Positions 7,084-25,732 of a DNA stretch of 64,000 bases are shown here, in pieces. The DNA is from a virus. The translations under genes and the position numbers were made by a program. A model generated the notes under the pieces. The model ran no database searches, was not told where the DNA came from, and saw nothing but the letters and a program-made list of their open reading frames with translations. Each line of letters starts with the position of its first letter. Within the stretch, counting starts at the first letter, position 1. The stretch lies in the IMG/VR virus record IMGVR_UViG_3300050821_007016, positions 1-64,000 of that record; one strand, 5' to 3'.

Positions 7084-8916
7084 TCAGTTCATCCCCGTCA
7101 GAGAGTGATAGACCGGCGCGACCCGCTCCAAGTGCTCGCGGATGCCGTCGGCGTAGTCGCCGGGGTTGGCCCCCTGCGGCACCGAGACGTTCATGGTGCC
7201 GATGCTCGTGGCGGACGAGCTGGTGTTGTGGGTCGTCGAGCTGTTCGCCGCGGGCGGCCGGCGCGACAGCAGGCCCTGGCTCTGCTTCCACTGGTTGAAG
7301 GTCCCGAGCGATGATCCGCCGGCGAGCGACGCCGACGGCACTCTACTCCCGCTCCGGTGCGTGATCGACGCCTCCGTCGCCGTGCCGTTCGGACCAATGT
7401 GCAGGTACATAGGACCGTTGTTGGCTATCTCGCTGAGCAGGTGCCGCTTGAAGGCCGGCCACTCGTTCTGCGGGACCGCGAAGCAGCCGAGCGTGTAGAG
7501 GTGGTCGAGGTCCCTGCTGCTGCTGGCGTGAAGCTCGATGCCCTCGCGCAGCCTCCCCGTCTTCGGGTCTCGTATCGCGTTGTTGTTGAGACCGATGGCG
7601 CCGTGCGCGGAGCCCCACGGGCCGACCGTTCCCGGCGTGATGGGGTAGTCACCGTAGGGGATCGAGCCGCTGCCTGCCCCGCCGCTGCCCCAGTGGAATT
7701 TGCCGAACCCCTCCATGTATCCCATCCCCCCCATGTAGTAGGGACGGTTGGCCTGGTTGGAGCTGGGTCCTCCGCCGGTCTGGCCGGGCGCGGTGGCCTT
7801 GGGAGACTCCGGCGAGGTGCCGGTAACGGCGCCTTTTATGCGCTTCCACGCATCGCCGAACGAGAAGGAGGACGAACCTCCAGATGATTGAGGTTGCTGA
7901 CCCTCCGGAGAGGTGCCGGTGCCAGAGGGCGAGGACGACGATGATGATGACCCGCTGGCGCCGCCGCCACCTAACGGCGTTCCACCGCCACCGCCACGCA
8001 GTCGTTTCCATGCCCTCCCGAACGGGGAATCGGTCCAGAAGCTGCCGGTCTCGTTTACCGGCGCGTCCGCCCCCGCCGGAGCCTGCATCGCGCCCGTGAT
8101 TTTGGTGATCCAGCCGAGGAATGTGATGAGCGCCGGGGCGAGGTCCGTCACGATGATGCGCGCGAGCTTTTCCGACTCAAGCGACAGCTTGCCGAACGAT
8201 TCCACGAGCTTCTTCGACGCCTCGACCTGCTTCTCCGTGGTCTCGAACTGCTCCGCCTCCTTCAGCGCTTGGCGAAGCTTTTCAGGCCCCTGCAGGGCCA
8301 TGTTGATCGCGCCTTGCGGGAGTCCGACCTGGCCCAGCGCGTACCGTGCTCGGTTCGGGTCCCTCTCCTCCTGGGTCGCGAACTTCGACAGCGCCAGCAG
8401 GACTTCGGAGGGCGGCGCGTTCGCACCATACTTTTGCTGAAGCGCATCGAGGCTGGCGTTCAGGCCGGGATAGGAGCCTGCGAGCCGGCGGAGCGAGCTG
8501 CCCTGCCCATAGCTGAACGAGGCGGCGTTGTTGCCGATGGCGGTGGCGGTGGCGGTGGCGTCTTCCTTCGATTGCCCCATCAGCACCGCGGCGGCCTGCA
8601 GCTTGGTTAGCTCCCTATTGGTCTGCCCGAGGGAGTTCGCCAGGTAGGCGGTCTGCGTGTTCGCCCTCGCGAGGTCGCCGACCAGGCGGTCGAGTCCGAC
8701 GCCTCCCGCGATCAGCGCGCTGATGCCGAGCAGCCGCGACTGGAATTCCTTGAAGGTACCTATGAGCTGGTTGAAGCCGGCCTCGACCGGCTTGATGTGC
8801 GCCTGCGTGGACGACTCGAGCTGGCGCAGCTTGGCGATCGCGTCGCGCTGGCCTTCATCGAGCTGCTTGGTGTCCAGCCCGATCGAAATGACGAGGGAGT
8901 CGATGAGCGTCGCCAC
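7084..8916 (-). CDS. Tape measure protein with C-terminal L,D-transpeptidase-like (Tlde1/DUF2778-like) domain
   Basis: MATLIDSLVISIGLD N-terminus, helical body, position after the chaperone. C-terminal IPYGDY...REGIELH...TLGCF. Confidence 0.8.
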   Translation of the reverse strand: MATLIDSLVISIGLDTKQLDEGQRDAIAKLRQLESSTQAHIKPVEAGFNQLIGTFKEFQSRLLGISALIAGGVGLDRLVGDLARANTQTAYLANSLGQTNRELTKLQAAAVLMGQSKEDATATATAIGNNAASFSYGQGSSLRRLAGSYPGLNASLDALQQKYGANAPPSEVLLALSKFATQEERDPNRARYALGQVGLPQGAINMALQGPEKLRQALKEAEQFETTEKQVEASKKLVESFGKLSLESEKLARIIVTDLAPALITFLGWITKITGAMQAPAGADAPVNETGSFWTDSPFGRAWKRLRGGGGGTPLGGGGASGSSSSSSSPSGTGTSPEGQQPQSSGGSSSFSFGDAWKRIKGAVTGTSPESPKATAPGQTGGGPSSNQANRPYYMGGMGYMEGFGKFHWGSGGAGSGSIPYGDYPITPGTVGPWGSAHGAIGLNNNAIRDPKTGRLREGIELHASSSRDLDHLYTLGCFAVPQNEWPAFKRHLLSEIANNGPMYLHIGPNGTATEASITHRSGSRVPSASLAGGSSLGTFNQWKQSQGLLSRRPPAANSSTTHNTSSSATSIGTMNVSVPQGANPGDYADGIREHLERVAPVYHSLTGMN

Positions 8917-8928
8917 GGCCGGCCCCCT

Positions 8929-9587: not shown

Positions 9588-9606
9588 GCGCTGTCTCCGG
9601 TTTTTA

Positions 9607-10050: not shown

Positions 10051-10062
10051 TTATCGCTCCCG

Positions 10063-12060
10063 TTACTGGACCTCGATGGAGGCCAGCGTGATCGCCTGCA
10101 CAGACTGTCCATCGGTGTACCAAAGCGTGCATGGCGGCGAGGCTCGCGCGGCGCGGACCTGGGCCGACGCGTCGCTGATCTGCAGGTACCACCCGCGCTG
10201 CTGGATCGTGGTCGCCACGTCGACGCCGGCGGCCGTGTTGACCTCCTGAATCTGCGCCTGCGAGAGCGTGATGCCGGCGCGGATCGCGCCGAAGTTGATC
10301 GCCGCGTTGATCGGATCGAGGCACGCCGACTCGATCAGCGCGTAGCCCGTGGTGTTGTAAGGGATCGAGAACACGTTCCCGAGCAGCTCCATCAGCGCCA
10401 GCTGCAGCGCGTTGTTGAGCCAAATCTGGTTGACGTAGCTGTCCGCCCACAGGAACGGGCCGGACACCGTGCCGCGGTTCTCCCAGACGAACTGCTGGTT
10501 CGCCGTCGCGTAGGCGCCGTAGAAGTTGTATCCGTTGCCGAAGTTTCCGATCGACTGCGGCACGCCGCCGAGGTTGTGCGCGATCGTCTGGTTGGTCACG
10601 TCGGCGAACAGCCCGGTCTGCGACTTGAAGGCCAGCGTGATTCGGCCGTTGAGCTGGGTGAAGTCGATCGAAGCCACCATGCCGCAGACAAACGCCGCCT
10701 TGGTCGGTCCCTGGATCGTGTCCGGCGCCCATTGCGGATACGTGCCGGAGAAGTTGCCGTTCTGCAGCAGGTCGCCCATCGAGGATGACGCCGGCAGGTT
10801 CAGGGTCGGCGTCACGTCGTTGTCCCACGCCACGTACATGTACTCGTCATTGGTCGAGTTGACCCACGTCGCGAACTGCATCTTCTGCGCGTTGGCGCCG
10901 CTGTTGCTGTTGTCGGGGTCGAACAGCGTCATCAGCGTCGCCCAGTCCTGGGTGACGGCGACCAGCGAGGTCATGAACGCGACCGGCGTGGCGGCCGCGG
11001 CGCCGGGAGAGAGCACCGCGCCGTCCTGCTGGCGCAGGTTGAGCGGGTCGGCGGTGGTGCCGCTGGCGAAGCCCATCGTCGAGGTCAGCGGCGCCGCCGC
11101 GATCACTGTCGAGGTGATGATGAAGGCGCCGGAGATCGAGTCGAAGGTCACGGTCACGGGCGAGCCCGCCGCCGTGCAGGCACCGGAGCCGGACGTCGTG
11201 TTCGTACTGACGAAGTAGGTGCCGGTGAGGCCGGCGCCAGTTCCGAGCTGGGTGATCTGCGTGCCGGCCGCGATGGTGCCGCCCGCGATGGTCTGGTTGA
11301 CCGACAGCGTGCCGGACCCCACCGCCGTGACGGTGAGGGTGCCGTAGGTCCCGGAGATCGCCAGCGAGGCGACGTTCTGCGAGTTGTTGATCGAGTAGAC
11401 GCCGATGCCGCCCGGCGTGCCGCTGATCTGGCCGGTGATGATGGTGCTGGCCGCGATCGCGCCGCCGGTGATGGTGGTGCCAGCGACGATCGTGCCGGAA
11501 GTGATGGCGGTGACGGTGAGCTGGTTGCCCTGGATCGATCCGGTGAAGGAGTTGGTGCTAGCGGCGAGCGAGGCGGTGAACGTGGCGACGTTCGGGTTGG
11601 CCGCTCCGGCGTTGAGCGCGGTCTGGATCAGGGTCGCGGCGGCCGAGAAGCTCGACGCAGCCGACAGGTTGAGCGCGGAGGCGCTGCGGACGTAGCCATC
11701 GACCGTGATCGTGAGCGTGCCGTTGATCGCCTGCAGCTGCGGGATCGTCAGCCCGGTGACCGCGGCGCCGCGCAGATAAGCGTCGACCGCGGCGGGATTG
11801 TACTGCGCGATCAGCAGCGAGCCTGGCTTCTTGTGGCTGTTGTCGAAGCCGAGGAAGTAGATTTCGGCCATCTGGAACTCGAACGAGGCCGGGCCGAAGT
11901 AGGTCGAGATGTTGGCCGGGCTGGCGAAGGCGAGCACCTGGCCCGCAGGGGCGCGGGTGTTGGTGGTCAGCATCAGCCCGATCATGTCGAGGGCCGAGCC
12001 GCCAGCGGGGAGGACTCCGGGGTTTACCTGGACGATGTCACTGGCGGGAATCGTTGCCAC
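10063..12060 (-). CDS. Tail sheath protein (DUF3383) with inserted beta-modules
   Basis: IPASDIVQVNPGVL, YFLGFDNS, ASIDF...GRITLAFKSQTGL, NFYGAYATAN, WADSYVNQIWLN, IPYN..GY, LWYTDG.SVQ.I; GGAGG RBS. Confidence 0.92.
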   Translation of the reverse strand: MATIPASDIVQVNPGVLPAGGSALDMIGLMLTTNTRAPAGQVLAFASPANISTYFGPASFEFQMAEIYFLGFDNSHKKPGSLLIAQYNPAAVDAYLRGAAVTGLTIPQLQAINGTLTITVDGYVRSASALNLSAASSFSAAATLIQTALNAGAANPNVATFTASLAASTNSFTGSIQGNQLTVTAITSGTIVAGTTITGGAIAASTIITGQISGTPGGIGVYSINNSQNVASLAISGTYGTLTVTAVGSGTLSVNQTIAGGTIAAGTQITQLGTGAGLTGTYFVSTNTTSGSGACTAAGSPVTVTFDSISGAFIITSTVIAAAPLTSTMGFASGTTADPLNLRQQDGAVLSPGAAAATPVAFMTSLVAVTQDWATLMTLFDPDNSNSGANAQKMQFATWVNSTNDEYMYVAWDNDVTPTLNLPASSSMGDLLQNGNFSGTYPQWAPDTIQGPTKAAFVCGMVASIDFTQLNGRITLAFKSQTGLFADVTNQTIAHNLGGVPQSIGNFGNGYNFYGAYATANQQFVWENRGTVSGPFLWADSYVNQIWLNNALQLALMELLGNVFSIPYNTTGYALIESACLDPINAAINFGAIRAGITLSQAQIQEVNTAAGVDVATTIQQRGWYLQISDASAQVRAARASPPCTLWYTDGQSVQAITLASIEVQ

Positions 12061-12125: not shown

Positions 12126-12887
12126 CTACGGATCGTAGAAGATGTCGACCGGGATCAGGCCGACGTGGACCTTGTCGGCGTAGTCTTGCGGGACCAGGAC
12201 AGTCTGGTTGATCTGGATGTGCGCGTCGAGCACCCAGCGCCACTCGATCTGCTGCTGGTCGTTGGTGAACGGGCGCTGGGCCGGCTCATCCGCATAGAGC
12301 GGCCGCACGTTGTTCTGCGGCGATGGCAGGTCGGCGAAGAACCGCACGCCGTTGTCGGATCGCAGCACGATGCCGACCGTCTGCGCCCACGCGTAGGCCG
12401 TGTAGTCGTCGCTGTGGAAGTCGAGCTGCATCCGCATCCGGTACGCCGCGTGCATGATCCACGTGCCCACCGAGAACGCCTCCGGCCCCGGTATGGTCAT
12501 GGAGTTGTTCAATGTGTAGGTGCCGGCCCCTCCGGGAGGGCCCGAGGTCTGGGCCGCTATGTAGGTCCCCGGCGTTACGCCGGTGCCGTCGAGCGGGTTG
12601 CCGAGCGCGATCGAGCCGATGGTGACGGCGGTGACGGTGAAGGCCTGCCCCGAGATCGAGCCGACCGCGCGCACGTCGCCGTACTGCTCGAAGTTGGTTG
12701 AAAGTCTTTCCAGAGTTACCGGCGTCATCACGACGAAGCTGCCGGTCTGCGGCTCGGCCGCGCGGTTCGCCTGCGCCGCGATCACGTCGGCGCTAGGAAG
12801 CAAGCTCTGGATGAACGCCTGCATGGCGGCCTGAGCGTCAACCTGGACCGGGGTGATGACCGATCCGATGATCGGCGTGACGGCCAT
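12126..12887 (-). CDS. Neck / tail terminator protein with inserted beta-module
   Basis: Start re-called to ATG 12887 (TGATG overlap). AQANRAAEP...FVVMTP...RLSTN, QLDF, PLYADEP.Q.PF.N.QQQ.E.RW. Confidence 0.8.
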   Translation of the reverse strand: MAVTPIIGSVITPVQVDAQAAMQAFIQSLLPSADVIAAQANRAAEPQTGSFVVMTPVTLERLSTNFEQYGDVRAVGSISGQAFTVTAVTIGSIALGNPLDGTGVTPGTYIAAQTSGPPGGAGTYTLNNSMTIPGPEAFSVGTWIMHAAYRMRMQLDFHSDDYTAYAWAQTVGIVLRSDNGVRFFADLPSPQNNVRPLYADEPAQRPFTNDQQQIEWRWVLDAHIQINQTVLVPQDYADKVHVGLIPVDIFYDP

Positions 12888-13468
12888 CAGGGCGACGAGG
12901 ACTTGTAGAACGCGGCGTCGAGCGCGGCGCCGGCGGTGGCGCTGATCACCCGGATGTTGGCGACCGGGCCGCTGTACATCAGAGGCGCCGCGGTGGTCGT
13001 CATTAGCATCCCGACCGTGGTGGTCGGAGCGCCGCCATCGTCGCGCCAGCGCACGTTCTGCGTCTCGGCCTGGAAGAGCACCGCCGTGGCCCCGTTCGGC
13101 GGCCCGACGGTCGTCAGCGAGGCGCCCGATGACGTGCAGGTCTGCGAGGCGATATAGGTTCCCGCGCCGCCGGTGCCGGTGCCCAGCGAGGCGACGAATG
13201 TGCCCGCGGTGATCCCGGTGCCGGAGAGAGGCCATCCGGGATTGATGTCGCCGGTCACGGCCGAGGCGGTGATGACGTTGCCGGCGCACGTGGCGGTGAA
13301 GCTGGCGCCGACGCAGGCGGAGAAGTTCACCTGCGAGTTGAGGCCCGCCGTCGCGATCTGGCAGACGCCGAGCGCCTGCAGCGGCAGCCCGGTCTGGAAC
13401 TGCGCCCGCGCTGGAAGCGGCAGCCAGAGCATGAAAGCGACGAACGCCGCGACGATAAATTTCCTCAT
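12887..13468 (-). CDS. Signal-peptide-bearing virion-type protein (beta-module plus small jelly-roll-like domain)
   Basis: Start ATG 13468 with GAGGA RBS; MRKFIVAAFVAFMLWLPLPARA|QFQ; C-terminal AETQNVRWRDDGGAPT..VGM motif. Confidence 0.7.
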   Translation of the reverse strand: MRKFIVAAFVAFMLWLPLPARAQFQTGLPLQALGVCQIATAGLNSQVNFSACVGASFTATCAGNVITASAVTGDINPGWPLSGTGITAGTFVASLGTGTGGAGTYIASQTCTSSGASLTTVGPPNGATAVLFQAETQNVRWRDDGGAPTTTVGMLMTTTAAPLMYSGPVANIRVISATAGAALDAAFYKSSSP

Positions 13469-14405: not shown

Positions 14406-17400
14406 TCACCTTCCCGACGGCTCCCCACTTACCACGGTTTTTGCCGAGGCGGCAGTCACCGCCGTCGAGGCCGACGCCTGGGTGACCGTCGTGATGCCGG
14501 ACGCCTGGGTGACGATGGTCGTGGCGTAGAACACCGAGACGGTTCGAGGCAGCGACCAGCCCTGCTCGAACGGCATCGCGCCGGCCGGGTTGCGGCCTCG
14601 CCGCGCGTACATGTCCGGCGCCCCGAAGACGGTAGGCGTCAGGGGCGGCGGCGGGATGAAGGCGCCGTCGACCGTCCAGACCGCCTGGATGGCCCCGTAG
14701 ACGCGCTGGCGCGGCCTCTGGGGCGCGTCCGTCAGCTCCCAGCCTCGGTACACCCAGGTCGGAATCGACGCGTCGGTGGCCTCCGTACCGCGCGCCAGGG
14801 CGCCGGCCCGGTTGAATGGCTTCCGGTAGTGGATCGGAACCGGCTCGAAGCCCCAGATCGGCAGGGGCTGGGTGGCCTCGATGCCGTCCGCGCCGCGCGC
14901 CAGGGCGCCCGATCGCTCGGGTCGAGGATGAGGCGGCTGGACCGGCTGAACCTCAAAGCTGAACGGGAGGAACTGGAGGAACGGCTGAACCGGGTCGTTC
15001 CAGTCCCGGAACGGGTCGATCGCGCGCCGGTAGCGCTGTAGCGGTGGCTGAAAATCGAACGAGAACGGCGGCGTCGCGATTCGCTGGAACGTGAACTCGA
15101 TCCCCTGATCGCCGGCCGCGATCGCGCCGGCCTTTTCCGGGCGAGGGTGGGGAGGCTGGATGCTCTGCTGCTCGAATCCGGCCGGGTAGAAGTTCACTAG
15201 CGGGAAGTCCGACGCGTCGACGCCGCGCGGCGCGATGGCGCCAGAACGCGCCGGCCTCGGATAAGGCGGCTGCATCGACTGGACCTCGAACCCCCATCCT
15301 ACCGGTGGCCCTGGCACCACGTAGACGCCCTCGGTGCCCTGGTCGCCCGCCATGATGGCGGCGGAGCGCTCCGGGCGAGGGTGGTTCGGCTGGTGCGGCA
15401 CGCTCGGCCACCCATAAGGGAGGAAGTTGATCAGCGGGTACTCGCTGCCGTCGTCGCCGCGGGCGATCGCCGCCGAGTGCTGCTCCGGCCGCGGATGCGG
15501 AGGCTGGACCGGCTGCGCGTCGAACCCGAACGGGAAGAAATTGATCGGTGGTTGCTCGTTGCCGTCGTCCCATCGCGCCAGGGCGCCGGCCTTGATGAAC
15601 CGGTGCGACAGCTGGACCTGCGGCTGATCGAAGCCCCACCCGCTGGTGGTCGGCGACGGCGGGATGAATGCAGCCTCGATCCCGGTGTCGCCGGGATCGA
15701 ACGTCTTGCGGCGAACGCGAAACCAGGTCTGCGCCACGTCGTCGGTCCAGGGCTGGGTGCTTAAGATCGCGAAGGTGCTCTCGCCGTAGGCGCCCTGACC
15801 CCTGGTCGAAACCCGCCGGGCCATCGATGGCAGGATCGTCGGCTGAAATGCCCACGCCGAGAGCGGAGGGGCGGGGAAGACCGGGTAGTCCTCCGCCTTG
15901 TCCTTGATGGCGGGGTAGCGCCCGGCGATCGTTCTCTTCAGCATCGGAAGGGTAGGGTCGAAGCCCCAGCCACTGGTCACCGGGACCGGCGCCATGAGCG
16001 GCGCCTGCGTGCCGGAGTCGCCGGGGTCGAACGGCTTCAGGCGGCGGCGGAAGAAGGTCTGCTGGGCGTCGTCGGCCCACGGCGAGGTGCTAAAGGCCAC
16101 GAACTGGCTGTCGCCGAACGCCGCCTGCGAGCGCGCCGAGATTCGCCCGGCCATCGAGGGCTGCACGGACTGGGTCTCGAAGCCCCAGCCGGTGGTGAGC
16201 GGCGCCGGAGGAGGAATGAACACCGCCTCGTTGCCCTGGTCGCCGGCGGCGAGCGCGCCGCTCCGCTCCGGGCGCGGGTGCGGTGGTTGCGGAGGCTGAA
16301 CGTCGATGAAGATCGGCAGCGTGAGCGCCAGGAACTCGCTGCGGCCCTTGATGCCGGGGTAGCGCTGCGCCGGGGGCACGCGTCGCAGCATCGGCAGCGA
16401 CGCCTCGAAGCCCCAGCCGACCGGTGGCCCGGGCAAGACGTAGACGGCCTCGATGCCGGGTTCCCCGGCCATGATCGCTCCCGACTTCTCGCTCCGGGGA
16501 TGCGGAGGCTGGAACGAGTACTCGAAGCCCCACGTGGTCAGGGCCGGCGGCGCGACGAGCACGCCCTCGATCCCAGAATCGCCGGCCATCACGGATCCGG
16601 ACTTCTCCGGGCGCGGGTGCGGCGGCTGGACGGACTGCACCTCGAATCCCCACGGGTAGAAGTTGATGAACGGGGCCTGGTTGCCATCGTCGCTTCGCGC
16701 GATCATCCCCGATCGCCGCGCCGCTATCGACGCTCGTGCCGGCGGCTGCGGCGGTTGCACGTCCCAGCCAGCGTTGATCCAGTTGATCAGTGGAAACTCG
16801 CTGCCGTCCTCGGAGGTCGTCATCAGCAGCATGCCGCGGCGAGCGACCTTCGGCTGGAGGTAATACTCGAAGCCCCACGTCGTGGGCGGCGGGATCGGCG
16901 GGATGAACGGGGCCTCGATGCCGGGTTCCCCGGCCATGACGGCGCCGCTCCGCTCCGGCTTGGGATGCGGAGGCTGCACCGACTGCACCTCGGTGAACGG
17001 CGCCAGGACGAAGGCCGCGAACTCGCTGCGCCCCTTCGTCGCGGCGACGCGCGCCTGCCTGACGCCGGGGTTGCGCGCGACGATCGGTAACGTGGGATCG
17101 AAGCCCCAGCCTGACGTGACCATCGCCTGCTGCGCCATCACGTTCTCGTTGCCCTGATCCCCGGCCATCAGCGCCCCCGCCTTCACGAAGGGCGACTGGC
17201 GGGTGCTGTACGGGGTCGGCGGCTGGAACGATTGAACCTCCCATCCCATCGGGAAGAAGTTGACCAGCGCGCACTCGATGCCGTCCTCGCGCGGCATGAT
17301 CCCGGCGCGCTTGGCGCGGAACGCCGGTGGCTGCACCGACTGCACCTCGAAGCCCACGTTCTGCCAGACGATCAGCGGCCACTCGATGCCGTCCTCCTTC

Positions 17401-18377
17401 GGTGCGATCGCGCCGATCGGTTTTCTCGCCGGCTTGGCAGGCGGCTGCGGAGGCTGGACCTCGAAGCCGACGTTCTGCCAGGGCGGGAAGATCGCGAACT
17501 CGGCCTTGCCCTTGATGCCCGGGTAGCGACGGGTGATGAGCGGCCTCTGCGACATCAGCGGCAGCGTCGGTTCGAAGCCCACGTTCTGCCAGTTGATCTT
17601 GACCTGCTCGATGCCGTCGTCGCCGCGCATGGTCGCCGCGCGCTGACGGGCCTTCGGCGCCCTGTTCACCAGCGGGTTGCTCATGCCCGCGCCCGAGGAC
17701 TCCCATCCCCAGATCGGCCCCTGCTGGATCAGCAAGGAGACGCCGAGCGACGTCTGGGTCGTGCCGAAAGTCCAGTTATTGGCTCCGGTGGCGCTGGCGC
17801 TCGACAGCGCGAGCGACGCCGCGCCGAATCCGAGCTGCGACGCCGTGCCCGCCACGGTCAGGATGCTCGTCATGCCCGTCGGTATCGTCACGGTGGTGGC
17901 GCCGAGCGCGCCCTCGAAGATGTAGCAGACGAGGGTGTCGTTGACGTTGCCCGCGCCCGGCGTGATGGTTGGCGACGGCGGGGTCGTGCTGGTCGCATTC
18001 AGCGACGTGGTGGGGCTGCCGTCGATCAGGGCCGCGCCCGCGCCCGCCCACTCCTCGAACGACCACTCGCCGCCGGCGGTCGAGGTCGTCGTCCAGGTGA
18101 AGGCGCCCGAGAACGATGCGTTCGGAGACGGCGCTACCTTGGTGAAGATGGCCGCCGACGCCAACCCGCCGGACGCGGTCGTCGTGGTGGCGAGCGTCGT
18201 CGTCCACCCGCCCGGCGGGGTGATCGCGGTGGGCGCCGTCGCGCCGCCCACCAGAATCGTGACGATCATCAGGTTGCCGGCGGTGACGCTGCCATTGCTG
18301 GTCACGGTGATCGTCGTGACGCCGGACCCGATCGTGGCGTTGTTCTTCGTCGCGGCTACTATCGTCGGGTTCGGCAT
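14406..18377 (-). CDS. 1323-aa protein: N-terminal Thr/Gly-rich beta domain plus ~27 Pro-rich repeats
   Basis: Long ORF with genome-like codon usage and AAGGCGGG upstream. Repeat consensus (W/F)GF(E/D)VQSVQPPHPRPERSGAIMAGDxGIEAxF. Confidence 0.85.
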   Translation of the reverse strand: MPNPTIVAATKNNATIGSGVTTITVTSNGSVTAGNLMIVTILVGGATAPTAITPPGGWTTTLATTTTASGGLASAAIFTKVAPSPNASFSGAFTWTTTSTAGGEWSFEEWAGAGAALIDGSPTTSLNATSTTPPSPTITPGAGNVNDTLVCYIFEGALGATTVTIPTGMTSILTVAGTASQLGFGAASLALSSASATGANNWTFGTTQTSLGVSLLIQQGPIWGWESSGAGMSNPLVNRAPKARQRAATMRGDDGIEQVKINWQNVGFEPTLPLMSQRPLITRRYPGIKGKAEFAIFPPWQNVGFEVQPPQPPAKPARKPIGAIAPKEDGIEWPLIVWQNVGFEVQSVQPPAFRAKRAGIMPREDGIECALVNFFPMGWEVQSFQPPTPYSTRQSPFVKAGALMAGDQGNENVMAQQAMVTSGWGFDPTLPIVARNPGVRQARVAATKGRSEFAAFVLAPFTEVQSVQPPHPKPERSGAVMAGEPGIEAPFIPPIPPPTTWGFEYYLQPKVARRGMLLMTTSEDGSEFPLINWINAGWDVQPPQPPARASIAARRSGMIARSDDGNQAPFINFYPWGFEVQSVQPPHPRPEKSGSVMAGDSGIEGVLVAPPALTTWGFEYSFQPPHPRSEKSGAIMAGEPGIEAVYVLPGPPVGWGFEASLPMLRRVPPAQRYPGIKGRSEFLALTLPIFIDVQPPQPPHPRPERSGALAAGDQGNEAVFIPPPAPLTTGWGFETQSVQPSMAGRISARSQAAFGDSQFVAFSTSPWADDAQQTFFRRRLKPFDPGDSGTQAPLMAPVPVTSGWGFDPTLPMLKRTIAGRYPAIKDKAEDYPVFPAPPLSAWAFQPTILPSMARRVSTRGQGAYGESTFAILSTQPWTDDVAQTWFRVRRKTFDPGDTGIEAAFIPPSPTTSGWGFDQPQVQLSHRFIKAGALARWDDGNEQPPINFFPFGFDAQPVQPPHPRPEQHSAAIARGDDGSEYPLINFLPYGWPSVPHQPNHPRPERSAAIMAGDQGTEGVYVVPGPPVGWGFEVQSMQPPYPRPARSGAIAPRGVDASDFPLVNFYPAGFEQQSIQPPHPRPEKAGAIAAGDQGIEFTFQRIATPPFSFDFQPPLQRYRRAIDPFRDWNDPVQPFLQFLPFSFEVQPVQPPHPRPERSGALARGADGIEATQPLPIWGFEPVPIHYRKPFNRAGALARGTEATDASIPTWVYRGWELTDAPQRPRQRVYGAIQAVWTVDGAFIPPPPLTPTVFGAPDMYARRGRNPAGAMPFEQGWSLPRTVSVFYATTIVTQASGITTVTQASASTAVTAASAKTVVSGEPSGR
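14560..17720 (-). repeat. Degenerate coding tandem repeats (~35-40 aa units)
   Basis: I count about 27-28 aromatic-Gly-aromatic-acid anchors (WGFE, VGFE, GWD, FGFD etc.). Recurrent DNA such as ctcgaagcccca and ggcggctg/ggaggctg is visible on the plus strand. Confidence 0.85.
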
Positions 18378-18397
18378 GCCCGCCTTTTAGCAGATTC

Positions 18398-19096
18398 CTA
18401 CCATTCACTAACGACGAAGATGCCGGGCGCGCTCGGCGGCGGCGGGCCAGCTGCCGGCGCCCACGCCACGCCGACGAGGATCGACGACGAGCCGGTCGAG
18501 GCCGTCGAGGCGGTGACCGTCACCGAACCGGTCGAGGTCGTATGGGCGGCGCTGCAGTCCGAGCTTCCGCCGGAGCCGGTGACCGACGTGTAGTAGTCCT
18601 GCGTGGCGTTGGTCCACGACATGCTGTCGACGATGCCGCCGCGATTCATGAACGCCTCGGCCGACCCGCCTCCCGCCGGCACCGAGATCGAGAACGACGG
18701 GTTGTCCGTCGTCGATGTAGCCGTCACCGCCGAGGACGGCGACGACTGGCTGCCGGTCAGGGCATAAAGCGCGCACTGCATGCGGTCGGAGGTGGCGGCT
18801 GTGGACAGCGTCACCACCACGTTGCCGGACGTCCCGGTCGGCACGGCGGCGTACCAGGCGTCGCCGATCAGTGCATTGTCGCCGGAGGTGATCTGCGCGT
18901 TGGTGACCTGCGTCGCGGTGACGCCGGCGATCGTGACGGATGAATAGGATGCACCGGTCTGGTTGACGCGGTCGGTGAGGATCGCCTGCAGGATTCGGTC
19001 GGACGACGGGGTGCCGAGGTTGAGCGCGGAGAACGTGACGACGTTGCTGGTCGAGCCGTCCGTGCCCTTGTCGACGTTGGTATAGCTGAAGGCCAT
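18398..19096 (-). CDS. Ser/Thr-rich beta-sandwich virion (adhesin-like) protein, C-terminus ...GIFVVSEW
   Basis: TFSALNLGTPSSDR...SSVTIAGVTATQ...AAVPTGTSGNVVVT; resembles fibre-tip domains. Confidence 0.7.
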   Translation of the reverse strand: MAFSYTNVDKGTDGSTSNVVTFSALNLGTPSSDRILQAILTDRVNQTGASYSSVTIAGVTATQVTNAQITSGDNALIGDAWYAAVPTGTSGNVVVTLSTAATSDRMQCALYALTGSQSSPSSAVTATSTTDNPSFSISVPAGGGSAEAFMNRGGIVDSMSWTNATQDYYTSVTGSGGSSDCSAAHTTSTGSVTVTASTASTGSSSILVGVAWAPAAGPPPPSAPGIFVVSEW

Positions 19097-19100
19097 TGTG

Positions 19101-19748
19101 TCACCACTCCGACGATGCGATGCCGAGGATGTTCGGCACGATGACGCCGCCGGAGGGCGGCAGCCAAGAGTAGGCTTGTATCATCGCGCCGGAGCCGGAG
19201 GACGCGTTGGTGAACCCCACCGTCTGCGCGCCCGCCGCGCCGACGTTGAGATTGTACTCCGCCTGGTCGAACTGGATGATGTCGTCCAGACCCATGCTCG
19301 TATAGCCGCCGGCCGCGGAGGCGCTGCCGCCGAGGTTGAGCAGCTGACCCACGACCAGGGCGTTCGCTCCGCCGGTCGTGATGCCGATGCTGATGTTGGC
19401 GCCGCTCGTGCTCGAATTGCCGACCGAGGTATCGTAGGTGGCCGGGCCACCGAGGACCTGGAAGGCCCAGAACTGGCTCGTCGGCGTCCCGCTGAGCCCA
19501 AGCGTGAACGTCTTGCTTCCCCCCGAGCTGAGCGTGCAGTCGGCCATCTGCATCTGCCAGAAGCCGGACAGCTGCGTCCCCCTGAGGTTGACCGTCTCTC
19601 CGGGGCAGGTGATGCCGGACACGGTGGTGGGCTCCGTCATGTAGCCGATGATCACGGTTTGGCCCGCCGTGCACCCGGTAAGGGTGAGCACGTTGGTGGC
19701 CGTGCTGGAGTCGTTGAAGACCGGAGAGACGCCGAGGGTGAAGGCCAA
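19101..19748 (-). CDS. Beta-sandwich virion (adhesin-like) protein, C-terminus ...LGIASSEW
   Basis: TTG start with AGGGG RBS; same size and pattern as its neighbour. Confidence 0.7.
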   Translation of the reverse strand: MAFTLGVSPVFNDSSTATNVLTLTGCTAGQTVIIGYMTEPTTVSGITCPGETVNLRGTQLSGFWQMQMADCTLSSGGSKTFTLGLSGTPTSQFWAFQVLGGPATYDTSVGNSSTSGANISIGITTGGANALVVGQLLNLGGSASAAGGYTSMGLDDIIQFDQAEYNLNVGAAGAQTVGFTNASSGSGAMIQAYSWLPPSGGVIVPNILGIASSEW

Positions 19749-19761
19749 ATGATTTCCCCTG

Positions 19762-21762
19762 TCAGAGCTGCGGGAAGTTGAAGCCGCCCCGGATGTAGTT
19801 GTTGGCCGCGTTGGCGGTGTAAGGGACCGACCAGACGCCGCGGCCGCGGTTGCGGGCGTTGTTGATGAAGTCGATGGTGGTGCCGGCGCCGCCGATGCTG
19901 GTGCTGTAGCTGCCGAGGGTGCGGCCGGGCGCCGGGAATGGTTCGCCGGGCTGGCCGCTATTGATTCCCTGCGGATCGAGGGAGTTGCCGGAGAGCGTGA
20001 GGCCCGTGGCCTGATTGTCTATGCCGCCGAAGGAGATCGCGTCGCCGTTGCCGACCGCCGCGAGCGAGTTGGCCGCCAGCGTGACCGTGGTCGACGTGGC
20101 GCTGCTGGTGACGCCGAGGAACGTGTTGGTCGTGGCGTCGATGACGGTGTAGTTGTTCCCGGCGTTGGTTTGGATGAACGACGGCACCGAGGCGAAGTGC
20201 AGCACGGCGCTCGCCGTCGAGGTGGTGCCGTTGGTGATGGCGCTGGCCCCGGCCGTCTGGTTATAGACGATGTTGTTGGTGACGGTGTCCGAGGTCAGCG
20301 TGTGGAAGAGGGTCGCGGTGCCGCTGGAGCTGGCGTTGACGCTGATGGTCAGCGTGCCGTTCGCCCCGGCCGTGGTGAATCCGGACGCGGCCGTGACCGT
20401 CGCCGTGCCGTTGCCCGGCAGCCTGGCCGGGCACGAGATGATCATCCCGTTCGGCCAGCCAAGATTGTTGTAATCGTTGTTGCTGTTGTCGACGTTGGTG
20501 ATGGTGTTCTGATTGAGGGTGAAGTTGCCGGTGACCTGGTAGCCGTTGCTGCTGTTGCCGTCCTGAACCTGGATGCCGAACCCCGAAAGGCTGGTGCTGA
20601 TGCCGTTGGAGATGATGTTGTGGTCAATGGTTGAAGGTGCGCCGCCGTTGTTGAGCAGGCCCTCACCGTCCGACTCCGCCAACGCCCCGGTGATGTCGGT
20701 CGATTCCTGCACCACGTTGTAGGAGATGACGCTGGGGCCGATGCCGATGTTGATGGCCCCCGCCGGTCGAATGAAGAGGTTGTCGTAGACGGTGCCGCCC
20801 GGGCGAATCTGCTCGCTGCTGGCAGGCTGCGAGCAGATGTTGTTTCGGAAATAACCCGGCCCGGTGCCGACCACCGCGATGTAGACGTTGTGGTTGAGGT
20901 TGCACATGATGGCGCCGGTGACGCTGGCGTTCCAGCCGTTGTGGTCGAACGTGCAGTCGTCGATCACCCAGTTGTTCTCGATGTTCGACAGGAAGATGCC
21001 CTGCGACTCGCCGGGCTGATCGTTGAGGTGCGAGTTGGCGTTGTAGTTGTCGACGAAGATGCACTTCCGGATCCATAGTCCGTTGAAGTCCAGCGGCTCC
21101 CAGATGATGCTGTCCCAGAAGAAGCGGAACAGGCAGTCCTCGAACAGGAATTTGCTTCCGACGCTGTTGTTGTTGTTGAAGAAGCCGTCGATCTCCAGCG
21201 TGGTATCGCCGGACACGAAGCCTCCGTTGTTGGGGTCGCGGCTATAGGCGTAGAAGTCCCAGCCGACGATCGCGACGTTGTTGCATTTCTGGAGGTTGTC
21301 CATGAAGATTATGGCGCCGCCCGCGCCGACGTGCGCGACGCTCGACTGGATGCTGGGTCGCGCTCCCGTGCCGTAGGTCGTGCAGACGATCATGCCGCTG
21401 GCGGTGTGGTCGCCGTAGACGGTGAACGCTGGCGAGATCACCGCGCCGGGGCCGGAGAAGCTGCCGAAGCTGCTTAAGTCGTCGTTCAGGAACGTGTCGC
21501 CCTGGTTGAGTAGCAGCCAGTCCGGCTTGCCGTCGCGGATTAACGATAGCCCTTTGCTGATGGTTTTGACCGGACTGGCTTGTGTGCCGGGATTAGTGTC
21601 CAGACCCGCGTTGGCGACGTAGATTTGATTTGTCCCCGTATTGGCGGGGTTGTTCCCCTGCAAGACCGGCGCGGTCGGCGTGAACGTGGTGAAGCCGTTG
21701 TTGCCGGGCGCCTGCTGGACCGGAAACTGGATTATCGGGGCGAGAGGTCCGGTCCTGTACAT
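19762..21762 (-). CDS. Right-handed parallel beta-helix protein (depolymerase/adhesin-like)
   Basis: Start re-called to ATG 21762. IYVANAGLDTNPGTQASPVKTISKG, DWLLLNQGDTF, YGTGARP, Asn-ladder repeats (IDDCTFDHNGW, HNVYI, FRNNI, IDHNII). Confidence 0.8.
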   Translation of the reverse strand: MYRTGPLAPIIQFPVQQAPGNNGFTTFTPTAPVLQGNNPANTGTNQIYVANAGLDTNPGTQASPVKTISKGLSLIRDGKPDWLLLNQGDTFLNDDLSSFGSFSGPGAVISPAFTVYGDHTASGMIVCTTYGTGARPSIQSSVAHVGAGGAIIFMDNLQKCNNVAIVGWDFYAYSRDPNNGGFVSGDTTLEIDGFFNNNNSVGSKFLFEDCLFRFFWDSIIWEPLDFNGLWIRKCIFVDNYNANSHLNDQPGESQGIFLSNIENNWVIDDCTFDHNGWNASVTGAIMCNLNHNVYIAVVGTGPGYFRNNICSQPASSEQIRPGGTVYDNLFIRPAGAINIGIGPSVISYNVVQESTDITGALAESDGEGLLNNGGAPSTIDHNIISNGISTSLSGFGIQVQDGNSSNGYQVTGNFTLNQNTITNVDNSNNDYNNLGWPNGMIISCPARLPGNGTATVTAASGFTTAGANGTLTISVNASSSGTATLFHTLTSDTVTNNIVYNQTAGASAITNGTTSTASAVLHFASVPSFIQTNAGNNYTVIDATTNTFLGVTSSATSTTVTLAANSLAAVGNGDAISFGGIDNQATGLTLSGNSLDPQGINSGQPGEPFPAPGRTLGSYSTSIGGAGTTIDFINNARNRGRGVWSVPYTANAANNYIRGGFNFPQL

Positions 21763-24092
21763 TCCCTGAGTGCCCTCGCCACGTCGTCGATCACGTCCTT
21801 CCAGTAGCCGGGCGTGTCGAACTCGCGCTGCCGAAACAGCCGAATCGAAGGGTACCACGGGCTGGCCTCGTTCCACGAGGCTCCCGGGTGCCAGCACATG
21901 AAGTGCCAGCTCGCGCCGTCGCGCTGCATCATCACCCACGTCGGCTTGCCCATCGCCCCGGCCAGGTGCGCCACCGCCGTGTCGACCGTGATCACCAGGT
22001 CGAGGTTGTCGATTAGCGCCGCCGTCTCCTCGAAGTTGGGCTCCTTCGACAGCAGGTCGCATATCTTGTGGCCATGCTCCTCGCGGCCATCGCCGACCAT
22101 CAGGCTGACCAGCGCGTCGTCATTTTCGATCGCGCCCAGCAGCGGGATGCAGTCCGAGAACCGCATCGACTTCATCCGGCCGTAGCGCTCCAGCCAGATG
22201 CTCTGCGTCTTGCGGATGCCCGATGACCAGCACAGGCCGATCTTGCGCCCCTTGACCTCGGCCAGCAGCTCGGCGAACCCCTGCGAGAGCTTGGGGTCCG
22301 CCTTGAGGTACGGTCCGTCCCACGGCACCGTGTCGATGTCGGTCCCGAACGCATAGGGGAGATCGCCGATCGGGACGTGGTAGTCGATCGTCGGCGGCAG
22401 GCCGACCACCCCGGGGTAGTCGCTCGCCATCGTCACGCACTCCACCTGCGGGAAGTTGCGCCGCGCCAGCGAGAGCATCTCGTCCCCGACCTCGTAGCGG
22501 ACGTGGAAGCCGCGCTCGACCATCAGCGGGAAGTACCGCCACATCGAGATGTTGTCGCCGTAGCCGGCCTCCTGGTGGACGTGGATGACGGCCTTGCGCC
22601 CGTCCAGCTGCGCAGGCTGGTCGACGCTGCCCTCCCAGCGCGGCGCCAGGAAGCGATGGTGCGGCACATAGAGCGCGTACTGCGTGACCTCGTGCGGACC
22701 CCACACCGAGTGCTCCGCGAAGCTCTCCTTGTAGCGGCCGAGGCACTGCAGCGGCAGCGACCGGTTCCAGTGCGCCATCGGCAGGTTACGGCAGTTCAGC
22801 TCGATCGCCTTGTCGAAGTACTCGATCGCCTTCTCGTGGCGCGCGAGCCGGTACTCGATCATCGCCAACAGGTGCCACGCGTCGCCCTTGCGCGCGCCGA
22901 CCTCCAGCATGGAGCGGCACATCTTCCGCACGGTGTCATAGTCGCGGGAGTCCAGCGCGATCACGCCGCGGTTCAGCAGCGCGTCGCAGAATTCATTCGG
23001 GTTGTCGCCTTTGAACGCAGCCTCGATCTGGCGGTCGTAGGCGCGGATCGTCGCCTCGGTGTCCATCAAGTCGCTCTCGACTCCCCCCAGCGTCTGCCAC
23101 GCCAGAGGGTTGTCCGGGGCAATCTCGGTGGCGATCTCCGCGTGGCGCCGCGCCGCCTTGATCGCGCCGGCCGCCACCATCGACTTCACCAGGTCGCAGC
23201 GGTGCTCGATGCATTGCGGGTCGGCGTCCAGCGCCATGAAGAACCAGTCGGCCGCGAAGCCGAACCGCTTCATCTCATGGGCGTTCGTCCCGAAGTTGGC
23301 GCAAGCTTCCGCGCGGGCGATCCGCCACTTGCCGCTCTTGAACGGCGGCTGCGTCAGGTACATCACCAGCCGGTACAGCCGGTCGGCCGCCAGCATGTTG
23401 CCTTCCTCGACGTGCCTCCTGGCGCGCAGGACCACCTGCTCCAGCGAGCTGACGTCCGAGGTCGGTCCCGTCATTCGAGTGAACCCGACCTGGTACTCGC
23501 AAAATTCGATCTCGGCCCCGACCGATAGCGCGTACTCCGCGACCAGCCCGCCTTTGCCGAGTATTTTTCTCTGTGGATAATCGTCGAGTAGGCTCATGCT
23601 GTCGTCCACCGCGACCATCGATTCCTCGCGCAGCGACGGCATGATCGCCATTAGCTCGTTGAAGTGGTGGACCTGCGAGACGGTCTCCGCAGACCAGTCG
23701 TGCGACGACGCGTCGAGGTAGAGCAGGTCGACCACGATCTCCGGTCCGGAGATGAGCTTGAGCCCTTGCACGCTGTCGATGTTCATGACCGTGACGTTCG
23801 GGCACAGCTTGCATGCCCGCGCTGCCTTCTCCGCGTCGATCTCGAACGACATCGCGGTCGATGGCGGGTGCGTCTCGATGTACTTATCGAACAGGATCGT
23901 GCTGCAGCCATTGCCGGCCCAGTTGTCCGGCTCCTCGATGCAGCCGGTCTCGACGATCCGCACCTGGCGGTCGAACTTGTCGAGGTGCTCGAACATCCGA
24001 CGGAACGACCCGTCCCTGCGGGTCGGCCGCCACTTGGCGAGCCTCGGCGCGGCGTACTCGTCGAACCACTTCCAGAACTCGGCTGACCTCAT
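21732..24092 (-). CDS. SAM methyltransferase - TPR - GT-B glycosyltransferase (GT9-like) fusion
   Basis: Start re-called to ATG 24092 (ATGA overlap). IVETG...DLLYLD...VAVDD...GKG (Methyltransf_24-like); TPRs (PDNPLAWQTLG, DAWHLLA, AHWNRS); EAGYGD, DYHVPIGDLP, IGLCWS, TAALIDNLDLVITVDTAVAHLAGAMGKP, SPWYPSIRLFRQ. Confidence 0.88.
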   Translation of the reverse strand: MRSAEFWKWFDEYAAPRLAKWRPTRRDGSFRRMFEHLDKFDRQVRIVETGCIEEPDNWAGNGCSTILFDKYIETHPPSTAMSFEIDAEKAARACKLCPNVTVMNIDSVQGLKLISGPEIVVDLLYLDASSHDWSAETVSQVHHFNELMAIMPSLREESMVAVDDSMSLLDDYPQRKILGKGGLVAEYALSVGAEIEFCEYQVGFTRMTGPTSDVSSLEQVVLRARRHVEEGNMLAADRLYRLVMYLTQPPFKSGKWRIARAEACANFGTNAHEMKRFGFAADWFFMALDADPQCIEHRCDLVKSMVAAGAIKAARRHAEIATEIAPDNPLAWQTLGGVESDLMDTEATIRAYDRQIEAAFKGDNPNEFCDALLNRGVIALDSRDYDTVRKMCRSMLEVGARKGDAWHLLAMIEYRLARHEKAIEYFDKAIELNCRNLPMAHWNRSLPLQCLGRYKESFAEHSVWGPHEVTQYALYVPHHRFLAPRWEGSVDQPAQLDGRKAVIHVHQEAGYGDNISMWRYFPLMVERGFHVRYEVGDEMLSLARRNFPQVECVTMASDYPGVVGLPPTIDYHVPIGDLPYAFGTDIDTVPWDGPYLKADPKLSQGFAELLAEVKGRKIGLCWSSGIRKTQSIWLERYGRMKSMRFSDCIPLLGAIENDDALVSLMVGDGREEHGHKICDLLSKEPNFEETAALIDNLDLVITVDTAVAHLAGAMGKPTWVMMQRDGASWHFMCWHPGASWNEASPWYPSIRLFRQREFDTPGYWKDVIDDVARALRECTGPDLSPR

Positions 24093-24607
24093 AGCACCCC
24101 GTCTCCCCCGGTGCTGAGCGCGCCAGTGCGGCCGACCCTGCGCTGGGTGTCGTCGTTGGCGAACCGCACCCCGCAGTGCGGGCACGCCTTCCACGACAGC
24201 TCGATCCGACCATCGCAGGAGAAGCAGACCGGGTCCGGCGCGCGGCCGCCCGGCAGTTTCGCGTCCTTCGGGTGGATATAGGTCTGGTTCTCGCCGACGA
24301 AGCCGTCGTCATAGTAGCGGACCTCGCCGGTCCCGGCGCAGCGCTTGCACTCCCAGCCGCGGCCCTTGCAGTCCGGGCACTCGCCCTTGACGTAGTGATG
24401 CCAGGGGCAGCCCAGCTTCTTGCCCATGACTATCACGTGGTCGGTGCCGGGCTCGTGCTTGGCGCAGCCGAAGTCGGCGTCGGTCTCGATCTTGAGCTGC
24501 TCGCACGCGCCCTTACCCTCGGCGCATTGCAGGTTGAAGATGCGGTCGCCGTTCTCGTAGTCGGTGACCCGCGCGGTGATCCAGTGCAGGCAGTCGGAGC
24601 AGCTCAT
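24089..24607 (-). CDS. Multi-zinc-finger protein (DnaJ-type CxxCxGxG pair plus zinc ribbons)
   Basis: CSDC, CPDCKGRG, CKRCAGTG, CFSC, CPHC. Confidence 0.7.
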   Translation of the reverse strand: MSCSDCLHWITARVTDYENGDRIFNLQCAEGKGACEQLKIETDADFGCAKHEPGTDHVIVMGKKLGCPWHHYVKGECPDCKGRGWECKRCAGTGEVRYYDDGFVGENQTYIHPKDAKLPGGRAPDPVCFSCDGRIELSWKACPHCGVRFANDDTQRRVGRTGALSTGGDGVL

Positions 24608-25181: not shown

Positions 25182-25249
25182 AAAAAGCTGCGGCCCCGTG
25201 TTCTTTCACACAGGGCCGCTGAATTCGTCAAGGGACTTTTTGCTCTAAC

Positions 25250-25732
25250 TCAGCGCTCGATGAAGGAGATGGTGCCGACCGCCGAGGCCGCATAGCCCGA
25301 GGTGAGCGAGGCGCATCGGAGGCCAAGGGCGCTCGCCGACGCCGGGAGGATGATGTTGTCTCCGTCATCCAAGGCGCGCCAGCGGTAGCTTCCGCGCTGG
25401 TTGATGCCCCATTGCTTCAGGTTGAGGCCGAGGCCGCCGGTCGTGTAGTTGGTCGGCTCGGCGGTCGCCGCGTTCATGAACAGCGTGGCCGCGACGTAGT
25501 CGGCCGGGTCAAGCAGGTTGGCCGCGAGCGTGGTGCCGGTCATGCCCGCCGTCGAGGGGGCGCGGGAGAGGTCCCAGAGCATCGCCGCGTCCTGGGAGGC
25601 GTAGACGCCGAACTGTCCAAGCTCCACCTCATAGATTTGCGCCCGCTTCGTGCCGCCGCCCCAGAGGATGCCGCCGGTCTTCAGGACGGTGCCAACGCCG
25701 TTGTAGAGCACGTAAGCAGAGAAGTTTGCCAT
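25250..25732 (-). CDS. Putative virion appendage subunit (small all-beta protein)
   Basis: GAGGA RBS; RAQIYEV, LDPAD, EPT, GINQRGSYRWRA, IILP, terminal F.E. Confidence 0.7.
   Translation of the reverse strand: MANFSAYVLYNGVGTVLKTGGILWGGGTKRAQIYEVELGQFGVYASQDAAMLWDLSRAPSTAGMTGTTLAANLLDPADYVAATLFMNAATAEPTNYTTGGLGLNLKQWGINQRGSYRWRALDDGDNIILPASASALGLRCASLTSGYAASAVGTISFIER

Follow-up and report, generated by a model that had tools for sequence, protein, structure and literature searches.

A rare family of 37-residue-repeat proteins from uncultured phages, with a possible role as the stalk of an accessory virion fibre

The subject of this study is REP (P0001), a 1323-residue repeat protein encoded in the 64,000-nucleotide stretch of viral DNA analysed here (positions 1 to 64,000 of IMG/VR record IMGVR_UViG_3300050821_007016; hereafter the window), the source record being complete at 74,647 bp and bearing direct terminal repeats (IMG/VR). 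An earlier note, made from the letters alone, had placed a 1323-residue protein at 14406-18377 without giving a strand; an open reading frame (ORF) matches these coordinates exactly and lies on the minus strand. The ORF has a plausible Shine-Dalgarno-like AAGGCGG 5 nt upstream of its ATG, and homologues up to E = 1e-234 on unrelated contigs, and is thus a genuine gene. We tentatively read its product as part of a virion appendage. REP is organised as follows:

14406..18377, minus strand: REP (P0001), repeat-protein gene, 1323 residues; ORF with homologues to E = 1e-234
17712..18377, minus strand: N-terminal head, residues 1-222; Thr 20%, Ser 10%, almost without charged residues
14703..17711, minus strand: repeat region, residues 223-1225, about 27 units of about 37 residues by decomposition with a hidden Markov model (HMM)
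15639..16187, minus strand: higher-order duplication, comprising the C1 two-unit block (731-803), a subtype-B unit (804-841) and the C2 block (842-913)
14406..14702, minus strand: C-terminal tail, residues 1226-1323 (98 residues), ending in 9-residue T/V/Q/A/S tandem repeats

A repeat HMM seeded on six clear units gave 24 matches over residues 240-1208 of REP, 18 of them to full units, with per-unit E-values of 1e-11 to 2e-24, and an HMM of the family (1050 units from 73 other proteins) recovers the identical units. Division of residues 223-1225 by 37 gives about 27 units, the number given in the earlier note. Its three subtypes are likewise borne out: subtype B, WGF(D/E)-PTLP...RYPGIKG(K/R)(A/S)EF, occurs four times, near residues 265, 424, 655 and 804, and is also visible in the family consensus, while two copies of the block of two units, PSMAxR...DPGD(S/T)G, are present as claimed (residues 731-803 and 842-913). 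The order of subtypes is irregular, with no fixed super-repeat. As the earlier note had stated, neither Gly-X-Y triplets nor a heptad pattern is present in the REP sequence or in the unit consensus, and a collagen-like or coiled-coil fibre was rejected on this basis.

Over the family (>1000 units), the unit consensus is FFPAGWEVQPPQPPHPRPERAGAIMRGDDGIEAPFINW. The most conserved positions are Gly30 (97%), Gly5 (93%), Pro13 (84%), Gln12 (79%) and Trp6 (71%, with Phe in a further 19%). Position 19 is Ala in 35% and Ser in 21% of units; no conserved Ser/Thr column is present in this consensus, and 11% of units are without any Ser or Thr. The start-to-start spacing of units has its mode at 37 residues and a range of 34-42 (1531 neighbour pairs), with secondary peaks near 74 and 108 residues, where a variant unit is skipped.

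At the DNA level, the repeat copies of REP are 60-80% identical to each other, and in the REP gene Tandem Repeats Finder detects no array of the repeat's period; for both reasons the repeats are, as judged from these sequences, ancient and maintained by selection on the protein, not the product of recent duplication. The two-unit block is seen in the DNA as a 204-nt pair with 70% identity at 330-nt spacing (repeat family D8). A 27-nt tandem repeat (2.1 copies, at 14458-14513) encodes the 9-residue repeats at the extreme C terminus. The C-terminal tail is conserved in about 20 family members and is a candidate virion anchor.

REP matches nothing in Pfam-A, PHROGs, NCBIfam, PADLOC or the PDB sequences, and the ESM Atlas returned for its repeat region only unnamed entries with feature matches of at most 0.81, none of them usable. 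A word-indexed search with REP found 73 clusters of relatives, and exhaustive phmmer over 1.84 billion representative proteins found 167 clusters at E <= 1e-3 and 94 at E <= 1e-30, all of them unnamed and nearly all metagenomic. Family members are defined by at least three units matching G-W-E-V/I-Q-P-x-Q-P-P-H-P-R-P-E-R ... G-D-D-G-x-E with a period of about 37 residues, a pattern that REP displays. All sightings of the repeat are in contigs of uncultured phages: a tblastn search of 50,697 phage records with REP gave no match, so that no cultured phage among them has REP, and neither IMG/VR, in a single-protein pattern scan, nor 185,579 representative prokaryote genomes, likewise scanned by pattern, yielded one, the latter leaving no sign of prophage copies. 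The sequencing runs containing the REP gene or close relatives are soil metagenomes, none listed as RNA. On the sequence collections searched, the REP repeat is an undescribed and rare family.

The earlier note had proposed comparing repeat counts across homologues with fibre lengths. The counts vary widely, from 2 to 36 units per protein over 174 family proteins; an attempt to follow variation of repeat number in four soil runs yielded only short, low-depth contigs and repeat-induced joints. BLAST sorts the N-terminal heads of 84 family members into 29 clusters, on which basis the head is regarded as a swappable module.

AlphaFold2 does not predict a fold for the repeat. For residues 200-1323, modelled as a monomer with a 52-sequence alignment, the mean predicted local distance difference test (pLDDT) was 37.5 and the predicted template-modelling score (pTM) 0.26, the model being devoid of secondary structure save for a C-terminal beta-hairpin (pLDDT ~61), in the region of the 9-residue T/V/Q/A/S repeats. 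Four in-register units, again as a monomer and with an alignment of segments cut at unit boundaries from the window and 12 loci, gave pLDDT 45.6, pTM 0.11 and zero secondary structure. The autonomous solenoid that the earlier note had named as the outcome contrary to its proposal thus did not appear in either run, both of them monomeric and with shallow alignments. The composition of the repeat region, Pro 14.7%, aromatic 11%, Ile/Leu/Val/Met 16.8% and net charge 0, together with a mean hydropathy of 0.451 compared with a boundary of 0.413, places it on the folded side of the Uversky charge-hydropathy line. An intrinsically disordered linker was rejected on these values and on the spacing of units; with its fixed period, aromatic and aliphatic content and folded-side hydropathy, the region looks more like a regular structure than a loose linker. 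The claim that the chain is too Pro-rich to fold alone and forms an extended peptide therefore stands in part: no autonomous fold is predicted, but the composition is unlike that of a plain disordered thread.

Mean-field direct-coupling analysis on 521 adjacent-unit pairs (Meff 484) revealed no long-range couplings above a shuffled control, the only couplings above it being those between the same positions of neighbouring units and one local pair. It is possible that the repeat is a monomeric solenoid or propeller-like fold that AlphaFold2 missed, given that the alignments were shallow (52-54 rows) and that MAFFT slid overlapping repeat segments by whole units; the period and the hydrophobic content would suit a folded repeat. 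We consider this very improbable, because two independent runs, one with in-register units, gave no secondary structure, because the direct couplings show no hairpin pattern, and because AlphaFold2 usually folds monomeric solenoids, even with few sequences. The lack of a predicted fold, the composition unlike that of disordered chains and the rigid period together suggest that the repeat chain becomes ordered only on self-association or on a partner.

The genes around REP are all co-oriented on the minus strand and form a myovirus-type late module, in this order:

35878-39333, minus strand: portal, first in the late-module order
minus strand, next after the portal: MuF-like head morphogenesis protein, then protease/scaffold
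minus strand, after the protease/scaffold: minor head protein, then major capsid protein (30634-29519)
minus strand, after the major capsid protein: virion protein, then Neck1 (27179-26457)
26441-14406, minus strand: 12-kb block without structural-family matches, REP being its last gene
minus strand, after REP: two small genes, the second phrog_1912 (annotated 'head protein')
minus strand, after the phrog_1912 gene: neck terminator, then DUF3383 sheath (12060-10063)
8916-7084, minus strand: tape measure gene, 610-residue ORF with PHROG tape-measure matches
minus strand, end of the late-module order: baseplate genes, then tail fibre gene

The tail sheath is similar to those of Burkholderia, Xanthomonas and Pseudomonas phages. 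REP shares its strand with the late structural operon in which it is embedded, downstream of Neck1 and upstream of the genes for head-tail joining. The suggestion that REP acts as a second tape measure did not hold: REP has no PHROG or Pfam tape-measure match, and the real tape measure gene is at 8916..7084. A tape measure protein was rejected because REP lies among neck genes, not between the tail chaperone and the baseplate hub, and because its models are without helix.

Within the 12-kb block, REP is preceded by the following genes and features, of which g25250, P0077 and P0079 recur together with REP in other phages:

25250..25732, minus strand: g25250 (P0076), 160-residue conserved protein, first of the conserved set, 41-65% identity across loci
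25190..25219, minus strand: strong terminator-like hairpin with a 12-bp stem (9 GC pairs) and a T-run, directly after g25250 and amid the late operon
24089..24607, minus strand: P0077 (g24089), 172-residue Cys-rich protein with two CxxCxGxG motifs, always adjoining the glycosyltransferase
21732..24092, minus strand: P0079, methyltransferase-tetratricopeptide repeat (TPR)-GT9-like glycosyltransferase, probable start Met35
19762..21762, minus strand: P0074, Asn/Gly/Thr-rich protein of ~666 residues (from Met101), variable cassette gene
18398..19096, minus strand: P0075, 232-residue Thr/Ser-rich protein, variable cassette gene with a homologue only in L013/L037

When the window proteins were searched by tblastn against REP-related loci, REP was always found downstream of g25250, g24089 and the 820-residue enzyme. 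A reverse search with an alignment of the enzyme retrieved 80 viral loci. In 27 of these the enzyme is close (>=39% identity), and 20 of the 27 carry co-oriented REP repeats downstream of it. Of the remaining seven, six break off before reaching 3.7 kb past the enzyme, and L040 alone has 10 kb of downstream sequence and no REP. REP follows the enzyme in 20 of the 21 loci with enough downstream sequence, counts that are limited by contig ends, with an enzyme-to-REP gap ranging from ~20 bp to ~9 kb. This linkage, on which the earlier note had not drawn, is the strongest line of evidence. The 53 loci with distant relatives of the TPR-glycosyltransferase (<=35% identity) have neither REP nor the two small genes.

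The cassette is consistently co-oriented within late structural operons, at varied sites. It lies between Neck1 and phrog_1912 in the window, L011/L032 and L034, between MuF and the protease in L008, L024, L108 and L123, and after the phrog_1912 gene in L111; in L016, Neck1 is upstream of the set and the contig ends inside REP. In L004, L015 and L005, which are of other morphotypes, REP is beside PHROG genes for a 'virion structural protein', head closure or a tail spike, and in related phages the set is also found beside podovirus virion and head-closure genes. The genes between the enzyme and REP vary by phage. P0074 is not conserved in other loci and has no Pfam, PHROG or PDB match; we read its sequence as beta-helical and tailspike-like. 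From their sequences the intervening genes look like those of receptor-binding proteins, being tailspike-like, Gly-rich-domain or ~220-residue beta-rich proteins, the Gly-rich-domain reading having a PF21722 match only for the head of one family member, P0066. The heads of REP proteins are of the same kinds as these intervening proteins, while BLASTP gave no support for a relationship of the REP head with the neighbouring P0075.

Two further phages encode look-alike proteins beside related enzymes. L040 (IMGVR_UViG_3300043777_000102), a complete podovirus-like genome of 70.9 kb, encodes the enzyme and then a 956-residue protein (8930-11800) whose head is Gly-rich and which contains a different Pro-rich repeat of 35 residues, (W/F)xEPLSEPxRP...QQxAWxGP, in at least nine copies. 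The segment after these repeats appears FN3-like in our reading, and the last ~70 residues match the C terminus of P22 gp10-type 'stabilization / head closure Hc3' podovirus proteins. L128 (IMGVR_UViG_3300047160_004735) encodes a 34%-identical TPR-glycosyltransferase followed by a 1355-residue protein (15952-20016), likewise with a Gly-rich head, and with at least 18 copies of a third repeat, GWSIVLPDLPAFRRxQALPE..., at 37-residue spacing and apparently in two alternating subtypes. By hhalign the REP and L128 units align in register (probability 65%, pairwise E = 6e-5), whereas the L040 unit is not significantly similar to that of REP. Common to the three repeat families are an aromatic anchor, a core rich in Pro, a patch of basic residues and a period of 35-37 residues. 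Literature searches on the L040 motif and on virion glycosylation by phage TPR enzymes turned up no mention of the REP family.

The genomic evidence bears on whether the cassette is a moron, its products serving in or on the host cell (for example in altering the surface or in exclusion) and REP staying out of the particle. Movement of the cassette as a unit among structural-module sites would be in keeping with this, and enzymes of GT9 type classically act on the lipopolysaccharide core; nevertheless, the REP sequence shows neither a signal peptide nor a membrane segment, the cassette is always co-oriented in late structural operons, its variable genes appear to resemble those of receptor-binding proteins, and the analogous L040 protein has the C terminus of a virion protein. 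The cassette also has no defence-family match (PADLOC), which counts against a moron and on which a defence system was rejected. We regard a non-virion role as very unlikely.

P0079 matches TPR families in Pfam and, over 35 residues only, Glyco_transf_9 (PF01075; 29.4 bits against a cut-off of 22), whereas its score against the NCBIfam heptosyltransferase models is 24 bits against a cut-off of 185; its C-terminal part is therefore demonstrably GT9-like, at the level of sequence, for the nucleotide-sugar-binding part only. Its N terminus matches phrog_24975, and homologues carry PF13578 Methyltransf_24; the TPRs resemble those of OGT and SPINDLY. The methyltransferase (236 residues) and the TPR-glycosyltransferase (551 residues) are separate adjacent genes at L013:5351-7713, on the same contig as L037, and L034, L036, L038, L039 and L041 match P0079 only from about residue 210 on. 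The enzyme family is large (at least 6683 relatives), functionally unnamed and in most cases without REP nearby. P0077 carries the motifs CPDCKGRG and CKRCAGTG, the Cys and Gly positions of which are invariant in 23 homologues, and the profile of its family (A6) gives a weak match to DnaJ in the PDB (1exk, E = 0.008). By these sequence features it is a DnaJ-type zinc finger; identification as a DnaJ was rejected, there being no J-domain.

These enzymes raise the question of whether the repeat motif is kept mainly for recognition by the TPR-glycosyltransferase, REP being a poly-acceptor glycoprotein stiffened or shielded by sugars. The near-obligate gene linkage would be explained in this way, as would the union of TPRs, a GT9-like nucleotide-sugar-binding part and Methyltransf_24 in one enzyme; an extended, unfolded substrate suits TPR binding, as is known in general for OGT, and the DnaJ-type zinc finger could keep the chain unfolded. 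FlmG offers a precedent, being a cytoplasmic protein O-glycosyltransferase that captures its substrate through its TPR domain (PMC7591256). The proposal is weakened by the lack of a conserved Ser or Thr in the unit, by the L040 and L128 repeats, which differ in sequence yet pair with related enzymes, by the more obvious acceptors offered by the Thr/Ser-rich head, the tail and the small cassette proteins, and by the size of an enzyme family that is mostly found without REP nearby. We take an enzyme-read repeat to be rather unlikely.

The most conserved gene of the set, g25250, has a confident Atlas model (pTM 0.80) and relatives in many viral clusters, but no PDB or Pfam match, including by profile search, and only unnamed viral clusters in the ESM Atlas; a weak ESM Atlas lead to DUF6143 was dropped, being unconfirmed by Pfam. 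Because the terminator-like hairpin directly follows it, g25250 is probably made in excess over the downstream genes and so abundant; GC-rich hairpins with a U-run follow the g25250 homologue in about 6 of 22 related loci (including L017, L020, L022, L034 and L037). Small, well folded and co-conserved, g25250 could be the partner that the earlier note had postulated. The sole GenBank phage with a homologue (37% identity) is the Manatee Spring myovirus MW202566.1 (L096), in which it lies at 8917-9360, after unannotated ORFs just downstream of the portal, which by position are probably scaffold/capsid genes, and before a run of small ORFs; neither REP nor a TPR-glycosyltransferase is annotated within the 18 kb viewed.

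The earlier note had proposed that the repeats bind one partner oligomer each. In this case REP would be a ruler or thread, with each 37-residue unit docking one copy or oligomer of a repetitive partner and the repeat number setting a length or copy number; the most plausible partner would be g25250 or a site in the capsid or tail lattice. The absence of a predicted autonomous fold and of intrachain couplings, the very tight period, and the common 35-37-residue period and aromatic anchor of three sequence-divergent repeat families are all consistent with such docking, as are the conservation and confidently predicted fold of g25250, whose hairpin, if read as giving higher expression, suits a many-to-one stoichiometry. 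On the other hand, g25250-like proteins also occur without REP (L125 and MW202566.1), the subtypes follow one another irregularly, and so high a content of aromatic and aliphatic residues would just as well form the core of a self-assembled shaft. The data are accounted for no worse by a self-assembling fibre shaft than by one partner per repeat, and we hold the ruler to be rather unlikely. Its wider form, in which REP and the L040 and L128 look-alikes would be a new class of non-helical phage molecular rulers, their unit count (2-36) setting the length or copy number of a glycosylated appendage, we view as improbable.

We favour, with a probability of about 45%, the reading that REP forms the stalk of an accessory and possibly glycosylated virion fibre comprising an exchangeable head, a stalk ordered on assembly and a C-terminal anchor, co-produced with a zinc-finger protein and a glycosyltransferase/methyltransferase. 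The appendage would be a head-, neck- or tail-proximal fibre, the exchangeable N-terminal head forming its distal, adhesin-like end, the 37-residue repeats a long periodic shaft that is ordered only on self-association or on a partner, and the C-terminal tail the attachment to the particle. The DnaJ-type zinc-finger protein would likely serve as a holdase or assembly factor for the extended chain, the methyltransferase-TPR-GT9-like enzyme would probably grip the fibre or its Thr/Ser-rich head via the TPRs and add a possibly methylated sugar, and g25250 is a candidate dock or co-subunit. The data show directly how the repeats are built, that they form a family, that their period is fixed, that no monomer fold is predicted, that the genes are linked and that REP lies in the structural module; its placement in the virion, its polarity, folding as an oligomer, glycosylation and, from domain similarity, the functions given to the three accessory proteins are inferred.

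A fibre stalk is supported by the place of REP among late structural genes, flanked by Neck1 and the head-tail joining genes, by the varied sites that the set occupies in virion-gene modules of related phages, by the presence of REP downstream in 20 of 27 close-enzyme loci, and by the receptor-binding-like appearance of intervening genes and REP heads. The fixed unit length, with a composition fitting regular structure, and the C terminus of the L040 look-alike, which is that of a head-closure virion protein, are further support, as is the lack of an AlphaFold2 monomer fold, since that is usual for intertwined trimeric fibre shafts. Several observations weigh on the other side. The proposed polarity, with a variable, distal N terminus and an anchored C terminus, is the reverse of that of most tail fibres; the direct couplings give no long-range contacts and no sign of an intrachain hairpin; the repeats, without conserved Ser/Thr in the unit, are doubtful as O-glycosylation sites; and the complete genome L040 has the enzyme without a REP-type repeat. 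The REP head is 30% Ser + Thr, and from their sequences the head, the tail and the small cassette proteins would be better O-acceptors than the repeats.

Two features of the window's other virion genes may be recorded here. The portal ORF (35878-39333, minus strand) is unusually long (1151 residues), N- and C-terminal extensions flanking a portal core of only about residues 195-760. In addition, a module of ~65-80 residues (phrog_21413 match), suspected to be an Ig-like decoration domain spread across many virion proteins, recurs in four virion genes of the window, all on the minus strand:

2785-4200, minus strand: baseplate wedge protein with the phrog_21413 module
10063-12060, minus strand: sheath with the module
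12126-13289, minus strand: neck terminator with the module
30657-31616, minus strand: minor head protein with the module

If REP is a virion fibre, a new structural repeat, one with no fold assignment, Pfam family or cultured representative, joins the small set of known viral fibre shafts. The zinc-finger factor and the methyltransferase-TPR-glycosyltransferase would then be its apparent maturation kit and, if this is true, phage virion glycosylation, so far mainly a matter of mycobacteriophages, extends to uncultured soil phages. Swappable heads (at least 29 types) on a conserved stalk would constitute a modular host-adhesion system of relevance to host range. The shared 35-37-residue period beside related enzymes points to a shared geometric constraint; were this periodic docking on a partner, REP would be a new kind of length ruler, employing a nebulin-like principle in a virus.

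Comparison with known systems is instructive at several levels. With tape measure proteins REP shares only a possible setting of length, being without their helical character or a family match. In mycobacteriophages, the virion glycosylation of which is reportedly described by Freeman et al. 2023, phage glycosyltransferases are said to lie beside virion or fibre genes, the products of which they are thought to decorate. Such phage enzymes often occur with a methyltransferase and TPRs. The REP system differs in that its Pro-rich repeat is neither a C-terminal extension of a capsid or tube protein nor collagen-like, and in that its enzyme is GT9-like, not GT2. In the TibC-TibA (reportedly Lu et al. 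2014) and Aah-AIDA-I pairs, a heptosyltransferase encoded beside a long repeat protein is said to modify it in the cytoplasm before export; TibC and Aah reportedly have no TPR or methyltransferase domains and modify Ser/Thr in 19-residue beta-helix repeats. REP and P0079 resemble these pairs in that a GT9-like enzyme is encoded near a long repeat protein, but the REP units, unlike those of TibA and AIDA-I, are without conserved Ser or Thr. FlmG of Caulobacter crescentus has an N-terminal TPR domain that binds the substrate and a C-terminal GT-B domain that glycosylates it in the cytoplasm (PMC7591256). Compared by domain order, P0079 has the matching logic of TPRs plus a glycosyltransferase, although the sugar that FlmG attaches to flagellins is pseudaminic acid and FlmG lacks a methyltransferase domain.

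Nebulin, the ruler of muscle thin filaments, has ~35-residue repeats, one per actin subunit, which bear an SDxxYK motif; it is unstructured alone and helical on actin, shows higher-order subtype patterns and varies in repeat number between homologues. REP is similar in its many units of ~35-37 residues, tight unit length, subtype patterns, predicted lack of structure as a lone chain and varying repeat number, a likeness that is by analogy only, whereas its Pro-rich sequence has no helix propensity. The adenovirus triple beta-spiral and the T4 gp12, gp34 and gp37 shafts consist of short, degenerate repeats of fixed period, with conserved Gly, Pro and hydrophobic positions, which fold only as oligomers and carry exchangeable globular ends. 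Although REP has no sequence or profile similarity to viral fibre shafts, has a 37-residue unit with a QPPHPRPER core, and bears its variable domain at the N terminus rather than the C terminus, it is like them in being a long repeat protein built of degenerate units of fixed period with an exchangeable end domain.

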